DNA of 64,000 nt from Escherichia coli (GTDB lineage Bacteria > Pseudomonadota > Gammaproteobacteria > Enterobacterales > Enterobacteriaceae): the NCBI RefSeq assembly GCF_003019035.1, contig NZ_CP027447.1. One strand, written 5' to 3'. A program made the translations under genes and the position numbers. Within the stretch, counting starts at the first letter, position 1. Every line of letters starts with the position of its first letter. The notes under the pieces were generated by a model that was not told the DNA's origin, did not search any database, and worked only from the letters and a program-made list of their open reading frames with translations. Of the stretch, positions 10,641-15,656 are shown piece after piece.

Positions 10641-11906
10641 GTGTCAAAGGCAACCGAACAAAACGACAAGCTCAAACGGGCGATAATTATTTCAGCAGTG
10701 CTGCATGTCATCTTATTTGCGGCGCTGATCTGGAGTTCGTTCGATGAGAATATAGAAGCTTCAGCCGGAGGCGGCGGTGGTTCGTCCATCGACGCTGTCA
10801 TGGTTGATTCAGGTGCGGTAGTTGAGCAGTACAAACGCATGCAAAGCCAGGAATCAAGCGCGAAGCGTTCTGATGAGCAGCGCAAGATGAAGGAACAGCA
10901 GGCTGCTGAAGAACTGCGTGAGAAACAAGCGGCTGAACAGGAACGCCTGAAGCAACTTGAGAAAGAGCGGTTAGCGGCTCAGGAACAGAAAAAGCAGGCT
11001 GAAGAAGCCGCAAAACAGGCCGAGTTAAAGCAGAAGCAAGCGGAAGAAGCGGCAGCGAAAGCGGCGGCAGATGCTAAAGCGAAGGCTGAAGCGGATGCAA
11101 AAGCTGCGGAAGAAGCAGCGAAGAAAGCGGCTGCAGACGCGAAGAAAAAAGCAGAAGCAGAAGCCGCCAAAGCCGCAGCCGAAGCGCAGAAAAAAGCCGA
11201 GGCAGCCGCGGCGGCACTGAAGAAGAAAGCGGAAGCGGCAGAAGCAGCTGCAGCTGAAGCAAGAAAGAAAGCGGCAACTGAAGCTGCTGAAAAAGCCAAA
11301 GCAGAAGCTGAGAAGAAAGCGGCTGCTGAAAAGGCTGCAGCTGATAAGAAAGCGGCAGCAGAGAAAGCGGCAGCCGACAAAAAAGCAGCAGAAAAAGCGG
11401 CTGCTGAAAAGGCAGCAGCTGATAAGAAAGCAGCGGCAGAAAAAGCCGCCGCAGACAAAAAAGCGGCAGCGGCAAAAGCAGCAGCTGAAAAAGCCGCTGC
11501 AGCAAAAGCTGCCGCAGAGGCAGATGATATTTTCGGTGAGCTAAGCTCTGGTAAGAATGCACCGAAAACGGGGGGAGGGGCGAAAGGGAACAATGCTTCG
11601 CCAGCCGGGAGTGGTAATACTAAAAACAATGGCGCATCAGGGGCCGATATCAATAACTATGCCGGGCAGATTAAATCTGCTATCGAAAGTAAGTTCTATG
11701 ACGCATCGTCCTATGCAGGCAAAACCTGTACGCTGCGCATAAAACTGGCACCCGATGGTATGTTACTGGATATCAAACCTGAAGGTGGCGATCCCGCACT
11801 TTGTCAGGCTGCGTTGGCAGCAGCTAAACTTGCGAAGATCCCGAAACCACCAAGCCAGGCAGTATATGAAGTGTTCAAAAACGCGCCATTGGACTTCAAA
11901 CCGTAA
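10641..11906 (+). CDS. tolA: Tol-Pal system protein TolA
   Basis: 421 aa with N-terminal anchor, long Ala/Lys/Glu-rich helical domain II and C-terminal domain III; GTG start. Confidence 0.97.
   Translation: MSKATEQNDKLKRAIIISAVLHVILFAALIWSSFDENIEASAGGGGGSSIDAVMVDSGAVVEQYKRMQSQESSAKRSDEQRKMKEQQAAEELREKQAAEQERLKQLEKERLAAQEQKKQAEEAAKQAELKQKQAEEAAAKAAADAKAKAEADAKAAEEAAKKAAADAKKKAEAEAAKAAAEAQKKAEAAAAALKKKAEAAEAAAAEARKKAATEAAEKAKAEAEKKAAAEKAAADKKAAAEKAAADKKAAEKAAAEKAAADKKAAAEKAAADKKAAAAKAAAEKAAAAKAAAEADDIFGELSSGKNAPKTGGGAKGNNASPAGSGNTKNNGASGADINNYAGQIKSAIESKFYDASSYAGKTCTLRIKLAPDGMLLDIKPEGGDPALCQAALAAAKLAKIPKPPSQAVYEVFKNAPLDFKP
11340..11520 (+). repeat. Imperfect tandem coding repeats (KKAAAEKAAAD units) in tolA domain II
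   Basis: Repeated gataagaaagc(a/g)gc(a/g)gcaga(g/a)aaagc(g/c)gc motif read directly; produces the long spurious Ala-rich antisense ORFs in the track. Confidence 0.8.
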
Positions 11907-12038
11907 TCGCGATGTTGACTGTTCCGACGGTCAACATCAGGCACCGGTTGCCACGGGGTTCTGGTAGTTTTGTGTATTTTAGTTTGTTAACATTCTGCTA
12001 AATTATCGTGGGCCATCGGTCCAGATAAGGGAGATATG

Positions 12039-13341: not shown

Positions 13342-13887
<546 letters not shown>

Positions 13888-13896
13888 GAGAATTGC

Positions 13897-14688
13897 ATGA
13901 GCAGTAACTTCAGACATCAACTATTGAGTCTGTCGTTACTGGTTGGTATAGCGGCCCCCTGGGCCGCTTTTGCTCAGGCACCAATCAGTAGTGTCGGCTC
14001 AGGCTCGGTCGAAGACCGCGTCACTCAACTTGAGCGTATTTCTAATGCTCACAGCCAGCTTTTAACCCAACTCCAGCAACAACTCTCTGATAATCAATCC
14101 GATATTGATTCCCTGCGTGGTCAGATTCAGGAAAATCAGTATCAACTGAATCAGGTCGTGGAGCGGCAAAAGCAGATCCTGTTGCAGATCGACAGCCTCA
14201 GCAGCGGTGGTGCAGCGGCGCAATCAACCAGCGGTGATCAAAGCGGTGCGGCGGCATCAACGACGCCGACAGCTGATGCTGGTACTGCGAATGCTGGCGC
14301 GCCGGTGAAAAGCGGTGATGCAAACACGGATTACAATGCAGCTATTGCGCTGGTGCAGGATAAATCCCGCCAGGATGACGCAATGGTGGCATTTCAGAAT
14401 TTCATCAAAAATTACCCTGATTCAACTTACCTGCCAAACGCCAATTATTGGCTGGGTCAGTTAAACTACAACAAGGGTAAAAAAGATGATGCGGCGTATT
14501 ATTTTGCTTCGGTAGTGAAAAACTATCCGAAGTCACCGAAGGCTGCAGATGCGATGTTTAAAGTCGGCGTCATCATGCAGGACAAAGGTGACACCGCAAA
14601 AGCGAAAGCCGTATACCAGCAGGTTATCAGTAAATACCCTGGTACTGATGGCGCTAAACAGGCGCAAAAACGTCTGAACGCGATGTAA
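13897..14688 (+). CDS. cpoB: Cell division coordinator CpoB (YbgF), TPR protein
   Basis: 263 aa with signal peptide, coiled coil and C-terminal TPR repeats; last gene of the tol-pal operon. Confidence 0.95.
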   Translation: MSSNFRHQLLSLSLLVGIAAPWAAFAQAPISSVGSGSVEDRVTQLERISNAHSQLLTQLQQQLSDNQSDIDSLRGQIQENQYQLNQVVERQKQILLQIDSLSSGGAAAQSTSGDQSGAAASTTPTADAGTANAGAPVKSGDANTDYNAAIALVQDKSRQDDAMVAFQNFIKNYPDSTYLPNANYWLGQLNYNKGKKDDAAYYFASVVKNYPKSPKAADAMFKVGVIMQDKGDTAKAKAVYQQVISKYPGTDGAKQAQKRLNAM

Positions 14689-14852: not shown

Positions 14853-14928
14853 GGGTCGTTAGCTCAGTTGGTAGAGCAGTTGACTTTTAATCAATTGGTC
14901 GCAGGTTCGAATCCTGCACGACCCACCA
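14853..14928 (+). tRNA. lysT: tRNA-Lys (anticodon UUU)
   Basis: 76-nt cloverleaf sequence GGGTCGTTAGCTCAGTTGGTAGAGC...CACGACCCACCA with encoded CCA. Confidence 0.97.
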
Positions 14929-15063
14929 ATCGCTAAGGTGGAAGCGGTAGTAAAACGTGAAGGATAACGTTGCGTCAGCAACGGCCCGAAGGGCGAGACG
15001 AAGTCGAGTCATCCTGCACGACCCACCACTAACATAGTTAGTTGTAGTATCCAGCGTAGTATC

Positions 15064-15139
15064 GGGTGATTAGCTCAGCTGGGAGAGCACCTCCCTTACA
15101 AGGAGGGGGTCGGCGGTTCGATCCCGTCATCACCCACCA
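15064..15139 (+). tRNA. valT: tRNA-Val (anticodon UAC)
   Basis: 76-nt GGGTGATTAGCTCAGCTGGGAGAGC...CATCACCCACCA. Confidence 0.97.
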
Positions 15140-15141
15140 CC

Positions 15142-15217
15142 GGGTCGTTAGCTCAGTTGGTAGAGCAGTTGACTTTTAATCAATTGGTCGCAGGTTCGAA
15201 TCCTGCACGACCCACCA
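15142..15217 (+). tRNA. lysW: tRNA-Lys (UUU)
   Basis: Identical copy of the tRNA-Lys sequence. Confidence 0.97.
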
Positions 15218-15268
15218 CTAATTACGGTGGGTTCGGTGGAAGTAGTTTGTAGTATCCAGCGCAGTATC

Positions 15269-15344
15269 GGGTGATTAGCTCAGCTGGGAGAGCACCTCCC
15301 TTACAAGGAGGGGGTCGGCGGTTCGATCCCGTCATCACCCACCA
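15269..15344 (+). tRNA. valZ: tRNA-Val (UAC)
   Basis: Identical copy of the tRNA-Val sequence. Confidence 0.97.
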
Positions 15345-15347
15345 CTC

Positions 15348-15423
15348 GGGTCGTTAGCTCAGTTGGTAGAGCAGTTGACTTTTAATCAATTGGTCGCAGG
15401 TTCGAATCCTGCACGACCCACCA
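15348..15423 (+). tRNA. lysY: tRNA-Lys (UUU)
   Basis: Identical copy of tRNA-Lys. Confidence 0.97.
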
Positions 15424-15471
15424 ATTTTAAAGATTGGTTCCGAGTAGAAATCTTTCAGGTAACACCCGTAT

Positions 15472-15547
15472 GGGTCGTTAGCTCAGTTGGTAGAGCAGTT
15501 GACTTTTAATCAATTGGTCGCAGGTTCGAATCCTGCACGACCCACCA
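15472..15547 (+). tRNA. lysZ: tRNA-Lys (UUU)
   Basis: Identical copy of tRNA-Lys. Confidence 0.97.
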
Positions 15548-15580
15548 TCCTGAATGATTAAAGCAGCATAATCCCGCAAG

Positions 15581-15656
15581 GGGTCGTTAGCTCAGTTGGT
15601 AGAGCAGTTGACTTTTAATCAATTGGTCGCAGGTTCGAATCCTGCACGACCCACCA
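15581..15656 (+). tRNA. lysQ: tRNA-Lys (UUU)
   Basis: Identical copy of tRNA-Lys. Confidence 0.97.

Follow-up and report, generated by a model that had tools for sequence, protein, structure and literature searches.

In-frame length variation of the domain II repeat tract of Escherichia coli tolA, very probably an intragenic VNTR

Introduction

TolA relays force to the outer membrane from the TolQR motor, which sits in the inner membrane. Its domain I is the inner-membrane anchor and is bound to the TolQ-TolR motor, its globular domain III engages TolB-Pal near the outer membrane, and domain II is a long alanine-rich alpha-helical spacer that joins the two. Group A colicins and filamentous phage enter via TolA. 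In another species, Salmonella, the number of repeats in domain II likewise differs between close relatives: the TolA proteins of serovars Typhi and Typhimurium reportedly differ in repeat number, a difference linked to detergent resistance by Lahiri et al. (Microbiology, 2011).

The closest described system is the repeat of E. coli tolA itself, which has been known, together with its instability, since 2012 (Zhou, Michiels and Aertsen 2012, PLoS One, PMC3477136; companion paper by Zhou, Vanoirbeek, Aertsen and Michiels 2012, Res Microbiol 163:316). The region was described as "13 imperfect repeats of 15 or 18 bp" (PMC3477136), and Lys/Ala unit repeats in domain II also appear in PMC7391070. 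In the authors' own survey of 234 isolates, as cited in PMC3477136, the count ranged from 8 to 16, and 66% of the isolates carried 13 units. Contractions occur at a frequency of 6.9e-5; this frequency falls to 15% in recA, rises 3.3-fold in uvrD and is unaffected in mutS (PMC3477136). The most frequent contraction is a five-unit deletion, deletions may reach into degenerate units located upstream, and one laboratory deletion is the same as a natural allele from STEC (PMC3477136). Alleles of 2–39 units were constructed and all of them keep at least partial function. Deoxycholate tolerance increases with the number of units, alleles of 6–13 units best withstand high salt at pH 5, and fd plating drops to 28–43% for every allele that does not carry 13 units (PMC3477136).

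Other systems are more distant. The domain II described by Levengood et al. 1991, PMC7391070 and PMC8928145 is the same Ala/Lys/Glu-rich helical spacer, leading from the anchor to domain III. In the paralogous Ton system, domain II of TonB is the corresponding spacer across the periplasm and also carries short repeats (Glu-Pro/Lys-Pro dipeptides), but it is proline-rich and extended whereas that of TolA is alanine-rich and alpha-helical. TonB or disordered sequence can nevertheless replace domain II of TolA, with graded function (PMC10666116). The TCT repeats of ahpC and the CTGGCG repeats of mutL (cited in PMC3477136) are likewise gained or lost in frame; however, their units are of 3–6 bp and switch an enzymatic function, whereas those of tolA are of 15–78 bp and tune a structural spacer.

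The tolA locus and its repeat units

The window analysed here is a 64,000-nucleotide stretch of E. coli DNA. It carries one tolA gene, identified from an ORF call and family matches, whose main features are as follows.

10641-11906, plus strand: tolA coding sequence, GTG start, 421 aa
10998-11522, plus strand: Ala/Lys/Glu/Asp-rich low-complexity tract of domain II, residues 120-294 (flagged interval trimmed to codons)
11532-11639, plus strand: Gly/Asn/Ser-rich linker from domain II to domain III, residues 298-333 (from the sequence; non-helical in the model, with a pLDDT of ~30-50)
11613-11897, plus strand: domain III, TolA C-terminal domain, residues 325-419 (Pfam PF06519)

The product matches the TolA equivalog NCBIfam NF007065 (554 bits, cut-off 213) and TIGR02794 (308 bits, cut-off 59), and PF06519 (TolA C-terminal) is found at residues 325-419 with an E-value of 2e-38. 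The three-domain layout of TolA is found in full, i.e. an N-terminal membrane helix, a long helical domain II and a C-terminal TolA domain. The N-terminal hydrophobic segment is readable in the sequence and corresponds to a helix at residues 3-34 in the predicted structure. Domain III is covered by the solved structures 1S62, 1TOL, 2X9A and 3QDP, and full-length TolA is present among recent PDB entries. Pfam searches on seven neighbouring ORFs, among them one for a YbgC-type thioesterase, give the canonical order ybgC-tolQ-tolR-tolA-tolB-pal-cpoB, which matches RefSeq annotation at homologous loci (ybgC-tolQRA-tolB-pal-cpoB). The tolA DNA is 100% identical to that of E. coli FDAARGOS_497 and 98.9% identical to that of K-12 MG1655 (14 nucleotide differences, mostly within the tract); the protein is the same as that of K-12 MG1655, the two rows being identical in the alignment.

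The tract (175 aa) contains 94 Ala, 40 Lys, 26 Glu and 7 Asp. Its 3' portion can be parsed unit by unit.

10998-11312, plus strand: degenerate 5' part, of low complexity, with short direct repeats and natural indels
11313-11519, plus strand: 13 classical tandem units, residues 225-293 (unit-by-unit parse; TRF period 15)
11311-11388, plus strand: first copy of a 78-bp (26-aa, five-unit) higher-order repeat (TRF period 78, score 255)
11389-11466, plus strand: second copy of the 78-bp higher-order repeat (TRF; in the register of a natural +78 allele)

The repeat region encodes the Lys/Ala-rich C-terminal half of domain II. Residues 225-293 resolve without remainder into 13 units (nine have 15 bp and four have 18 bp), with the sequences KKAAAE, KAAAD, KKAAE, KAAAE, KKAAAA and KAAAA, that is, the formula Lys(1-2)-Ala(2-4)-Glu/Asp/Ala. 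This parse corresponds to the tolA repeats described in PMC3477136; the window carries the same locus as that of Zhou et al., with nothing essential different, and nothing reported here alters the current understanding of it. Pairs of these 5/6-codon units make an 11-aa unit, and the two 78-bp copies agree at 66 of their 78 positions, including two stretches, of 20 and 17 bp, that are exactly identical.

Length variation among E. coli strains

The preliminary description of this DNA had proposed that the length of domain II can vary between strains, and a comparison across strains bears this out. Among 5,426 complete E. coli genomes, 5,425 have an annotated tolA. These 5,425 genomes were ranked by similarity and sampled twice at regular intervals along the ranking; the two samples have at least two genomes in common, and their combined size of ~119 is approximate. 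The reference length of 1266 bp was found in 40/59 and 39/60 genomes (~66%), a share equal to that of the 13-unit allele in the literature survey as PMC3477136 cites it. The remaining third or so of the ~119 genomes deviate in length, and at least 16 further in-frame classes of 394-448 aa are found among them. The 436-aa allele occurs in ~9-11 of the ~119 genomes, and the 394-aa allele was found in O157:H7 and cattle strains. The upper end of this natural range (+26/+27 aa, i.e. 447-448 aa or ~18 units) lies beyond the 8–16 units cited in PMC3477136 from the authors' survey.

Twenty-three tolA loci were retrieved for sequence detail, 22 of them with intact alleles (all 22 annotated as intact tolA). 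Together with the window, these 22 alleles show 17 different lengths, the shortest being 1185 bp and the longest 1347 bp, every one a multiple of 3. In pairwise alignments of the 22 intact alleles to the window, all length differences fall within a single zone, and domains I and III show no indels in the alignment of natural alleles.

11066-11465, plus strand: zone that contains every length difference

This zone includes part of the degenerate 5' portion, with indels at 11066 (+24), 11143-11187 (-45), 11223-11264 (-42) and 11244-11249 (-6).

The distribution of the alleles over haplotypes adds to the work of Zhou et al., since it reveals several length alleles on one SNP haplotype. Six of them (0, +24, -33, +33, -45 and -42 bp) are carried by the K-12-type flank-SNP haplotype with no extra SNP, and a B2-type flank haplotype carries the alleles -15, +78 and -6. 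Conversely, an identical 81-bp deletion (11265-11345) is present on two haplotypes, in O157:H7 RIMD 0509939 and in S1-ESP-02-A. Indels in tolA thus appear to arise faster than point substitutions, as indicated by the haplotype with six length alleles and by the 81-bp deletion that two haplotypes share. Equal lengths can also hide different events, the -45 deletion and the +33 insertion each being found at two sites.

Junctions and proposed mechanism

Most insertions are perfect tandem duplications: those of 12, 15, 24, 33, 33 and 78 bp match the adjoining sequence at 100% identity. The +78 allele (L020) is a perfect tandem duplication in register of 11389-11466, the second copy of the higher-order repeat. 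Among the clean single deletions, most are bordered by direct repeats of 7-13 bp, namely those of 6, 15, 42, 45, 45 and 81 bp. On the other hand, the deletions in alleles L008, L012 and L022 have little or no flanking homology and alleles L010 and L012 are complex; in all, five alleles (L006, L008, L010, L012 and L022) are complex or lack clear flanking homology. Judging from these junctions, not every natural length event in tolA is a simple slippage.

Taken as a whole, the process is very probably as follows. The 5/6-codon units make up an 11-codon unit, which itself lies within a 26-codon (78-bp) duplication, and this nesting places many short and some long direct repeats in one reading frame. 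Their misalignment occurs through RecA-dependent unequal recombination and probably also through replication slippage. Whole codons are then gained or lost, so that the frame is kept and the length of the helix alone is altered. An isotropic helix surface and a wide tolerance to length would finally allow many natural alleles to persist around the modal 421-aa form. The 78-bp repeat would account for the predominant five-unit deletion and is its likely substrate, because it provides the longest homology (the 20- and 17-bp blocks) and spans five units.

The tract had been described beforehand as prone to length change by slipped strands or recombination. The in-frame variants and the repeat-mediated junctions agree with this, as do the published contractions, which are RecA-dependent. 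Repeat units in excess of what composition gives are found in 11298-11522 (see below) and the in-frame copy polymorphism is confined to 11066-11465; the tract is very probably an intragenic VNTR of E. coli tolA that gains and loses in-frame units by repeat misalignment. The rate of these events, their RecA dependence and the phenotypic modulation by tolA repeats are drawn from the literature and not from this analysis.

Possible selection on repeat number

The changes in repeat number could also be maintained by selection. Under such a bet-hedging scheme, tolA would be a contingency locus whose different lengths are optimal under different stresses. We consider this doubtful. In its favour, Zhou et al. 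report opposing stress optima and name tolA a hypermutable contingency locus (PMC3477136). The stresses would be bile salts, low pH combined with high salt, and filamentous phage, and the lineage-specific alleles would then be adaptive. Certain alleles are indeed common in particular lineages, such as those of 436 aa and of 394 aa mentioned above. However, two thirds of the genomes, belonging to several unrelated SNP haplotypes, encode exactly 421 aa, a predominance that looks like stabilising selection accompanied by drift of neutral or mildly deleterious variants. Furthermore, the strong phenotypes come from synthetic extremes (2, 26 and 39 units) and not from alleles within the natural range, and expansions were not recovered under deoxycholate selection (PMC3477136), which also argues against such maintenance. 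As spacer length varies naturally, the sequenced strains already offer allelic series with which the length or rigidity of this force transducer could be tested.

Helical structure and periplasmic span

An alpha-helix rises by 1.5 Å per residue. The natural range of ±27 aa would therefore correspond, by calculation, to about ±40 Å of fully extended helix, and a change in tolA length, as the preliminary description had also proposed, may alter the reach or the mechanics of TolA across the periplasm. Nevertheless, the exact length of domain II is not critical, because constructs of 2–39 units are all at least partly functional and the domain can be replaced (PMC3477136, PMC10666116). Rigidity, together with an approximate length, seems to be of greater importance than the precise length.

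In reviews, E. coli domain II as modelled by AlphaFold is described as a 220-Å helical hairpin, and its extension through the peptidoglycan, driven by the PMF, has been proposed (PMC8928145). Two TolA alleles were modelled here from shallow alignments (10 near-identical sequences), giving models of low confidence with pTM of 0.27 and 0.26. The low-confidence model of the 421-aa allele shows a helix at residues 59-211 (~230 Å), a break at 212-227 and a second helix at 228-297; its first helix and its break agree with the description of a 220-Å hairpin, in which the 13-unit region would form the returning arm. The equally low-confidence model of the 394-aa allele, from which residues 209-235 are gone, shows a single helix at 61-269. 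The two models thus disagree on the presence of the break, and estimating the span from them was given up as anything other than a weak lead, given these pTM values and the conflict over the break.

The break, the only one in the modelled domain II helix of the 421-aa allele, lies just before repeat unit 1, and the common 81-bp deletion of the O157:H7 type takes out residues 209-235. If the break were the hinge of the 220-Å hairpin, some lineages would have a rod rather than a hairpin as ground state, and such a rod, if real, would imply a different force output, a different rate of colicin and phage uptake and a different tolerance to bile. On the strength of these models, there is only a slim chance that natural length alleles retune the mechanics of TolA rather than act as neutral spacers.

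The charged residues of the 13-unit region have a helical moment of about 0 (0.02-0.09), which fits a helix without a specific packing face, where register shifts would be tolerated. The natural indels (2, 4, 5, 6, 8, 11, 14, 15, 17, 26 and 27 aa) indeed correspond to phase shifts all round the helix. An amphipathic alanine stripe that would force indels to preserve the phase was considered and rejected, as the moment of the charged residues is close to 0. Opposite-charge pairs in the region peak at i+1 and i+4, with 11 pairs at i+4. With regard to a single alpha-helix of the ER/K type, which is charge-rich, stabilised by opposite-charge pairs from i to i+4 and devoid of a hydrophobic seam, the observations point both ways: the i+4 pairs and the moment of about 0 in one direction, and in the other a content of more than 50% Ala, unlike ER/K motifs, and published models that favour a hairpin.

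Periodicity and composition

Low-complexity coding DNA yields repeat-like hits from composition alone. For this reason, the repeats detected by TRF were compared with 300 shuffles in which codon content and reading frame are preserved. In the tract, TRF detects overlapping arrays with periods of 15, 30, 33, 48 and 78 bp, the top one being located at 11311-11469 (period 78, 2.0 copies, 88% matches, score 255), while the period of 15 is repeated 12.3 times at 11316-11509. For the whole interval, this score of 255 compares with 72±22 in the shuffles and exceeds all 300 of them. The maxima of autocorrelation relative to the shuffles are at 33, 48, 78, 111 and 144 bp, and the lags with a z above 3 in the protein are 11, 16, 26, 37 and 48 aa.

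The signal is unevenly distributed. In the 3' part (11298-11522), the score of 255 compares with 64±21 in the shuffles and none of the 300 reaches it; the longest exact direct repeat is 20 bp, a length equalled in 2 of the 300. In contrast, the 5' part (10998-11297) has no excess of TRF periodicity (70 versus 52±16, with 36 of the 300 shuffles as high), and no exact repeat in it is longer than 12 bp, which is also the mean of the 300 codon shuffles. Genuine tandem structure is limited to roughly the final 40% of the interval. What precedes it owes its low complexity to composition and has only short direct repeats. The periodicity that formal repeat analysis was expected to reveal was thus found, and the imperfect tandem repeats of an Ala/Lys/Glu/Asp unit, which had been proposed for the whole of 11000-11520, hold for 11298-11522 and fail for 10998-11297, the 5' 300 bp, where the label "tandem repeat" is an overstatement.

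It is very unlikely that the tract is mere compositional low complexity, i.e. an Ala/Lys-rich helix with neither true repeats nor special instability. The 5' part, which does no better than the codon shuffles, is what such a reading predicts, but it conflicts with the results for the 3' part and with an abundant repeat-mediated length polymorphism whose indels are found nowhere else in tolA. For 11298-11522, it is refuted by the TRF, shuffle and junction results taken together.

A heptad coiled coil was also rejected, since the autocorrelation of the tract gives no signal at 21 bp (7 aa; z of -1.4) and the moment of the charged residues at 102.9° is 0.09. The tolA repeats are called "heptads" in bioRxiv 10.1101/2024.11.27.625625, whereas only periods of 5/6, 11, 16 and 26 aa were found here.

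Reliability of the length differences

Repeats of this kind are hard to assemble, and the length differences might be artefacts of sequencing or assembly, an explanation that we regard as highly improbable. The one allele that fits it is that of NIPH17_0036, in which tolA is scrambled and frameshifted across ~10980-11660 in the manner of uncorrected read errors; this allele is the only length variant of the sampled genomes that is not in frame. It could have been taken for a natural loss of tolA, but this candidate was set aside, as the scramble of ~680 bp is made of dozens of indels of 1-20 bp and looks like read error. Apart from this one, every variant is an exact multiple of 3 and has clean junctions. 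Identical alleles are met again in independent assemblies (at least 9 times for that of 1311 bp and 5 times for that of 1185 bp), and the published work, in which isolates were sized by PCR and sequenced, led to a matching picture (PMC3477136). For annotation, differences in tolA length between strains should therefore be treated as normal, and neither as assembly errors nor as pseudogenisation.

Antisense open reading frames

Two long ORFs lie on the minus strand over the tract, both taken from the ORF list.

10979-11653, minus strand: spurious antisense ORF of 224 aa, an Ala/Phe/Ser-rich mirror of the tract
11074-11562, minus strand: spurious antisense ORF of 162 aa, rich in Leu/Gln/Pro/Phe

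The preliminary description had attributed such ORFs to the tract, and this attribution is sound. The sense strand of 10998-11522 contains only 5.3% T; antisense stops, which require an A opposite each such T, are consequently scarce (1, 0 and 1 per frame over 525 bp, compared with 6, 21 and 18 per frame over the 1296 bp of tolB), which leads to long ORFs on the minus strand. That these ORFs are real overlapping genes, as their lengths of 224 and 162 aa might suggest, is extremely unlikely, since they are low-complexity mirrors of Ala/Lys codons with no match in Pfam for either of them, their length is fully accounted for by the low T content and the 0-1 stops per antisense frame, and it would shift with each tolA indel. 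Antisense ORFs over the tolA tract should thus be ignored in annotation. The minus strand also has nine terminator-like matches (a hairpin plus a T-run), which are read as by-products of the same composition.

Nucleotide variation of tolA

The Ala/Lys/Glu/Asp-rich tract of TolA domain II (10998-11522) makes up 41% of tolA and holds 60-75% of the nucleotide differences between the allele of the window and other alleles. Despite this concentration of differences in the tract, the TolA protein encoded in the window is identical to that of K-12. The excess of nucleotide differences in a tract whose protein sequence is unchanged between the window and K-12 probably reflects its many four-fold degenerate alanine codons.

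A search of 5,426 complete E. coli genomes found a tolA match in all but one of them, and two of the matches are on sequence records listed as plasmids. Among the 23 tolA loci retrieved from other E. coli genomes, L017 has a scrambled sequence:

1242-2383 of the locus (NZ_AP024561.1, strain NIPH17_0036), equivalent to about 10980-11660 of the window

The annotation treats this tolA as a pseudogene with a frameshift, and the gene differs from that of the window by 60 mismatches and dozens of indels of 1-45 bp, which are spread throughout the repeat tract and the Gly/Asn/Ser-rich linker between domains II and III, with normal flanks. Judged from its sequence, it looks like uncorrected read error in a repeat that is hard to assemble rather than a natural allele.

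Terminator-like matches within the repeat tract

The tract is also rich in predicted hairpins:

11100-11525, minus strand: nine terminator-like matches (hairpin plus T-run), antisense to the tolA repeat tract

The plus strand of the same region carries one further match, giving 10 observed matches versus 2.9±1.5 in shuffled sequences. The matches stem from self-complementary alanine codons (GCAGC/GCTGC), which form the hairpin, and from the complement of AAA lysine codons directly after them. In single-stranded DNA, the hairpins of the tract might also promote replication slippage.

Candidate elements around the tolA-tolB junction

Two elements were found around the 3' end of tolA:

11801-11830, plus strand: predicted sigma-70-like promoter match, within the 3' end of tolA and upstream of tolB
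11911-11938, plus strand: perfect hairpin with a 12-bp stem and a 4-nt loop, within the 129-bp tolA-tolB intergenic region

The promoter-like match (TTGTCA, 18-nt spacer, TAAACT) scores 9/12. Older literature places an internal promoter of tolB in this area. The hairpin begins 5 bases downstream of the tolA stop codon, and no T-run comes after it. The full-length intergenic RNA folds better than 200 of 200 shuffled sequences (z -3.1). The hairpin may be an mRNA processing or stability element.

Other RNA elements

Three other RNA features occur in the window:

13788-13926, plus strand: CpoB/ybgF intercistronic RNA thermometer, an Rfam match across the pal-cpoB junction
14853-15653, plus strand: seven clustered tRNA genes and an RtT element, directly 3' of cpoB
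50423-50567, plus strand: molybdenum-cofactor riboswitch

The thermometer match scores 142 bits, versus a gathering score of 51.
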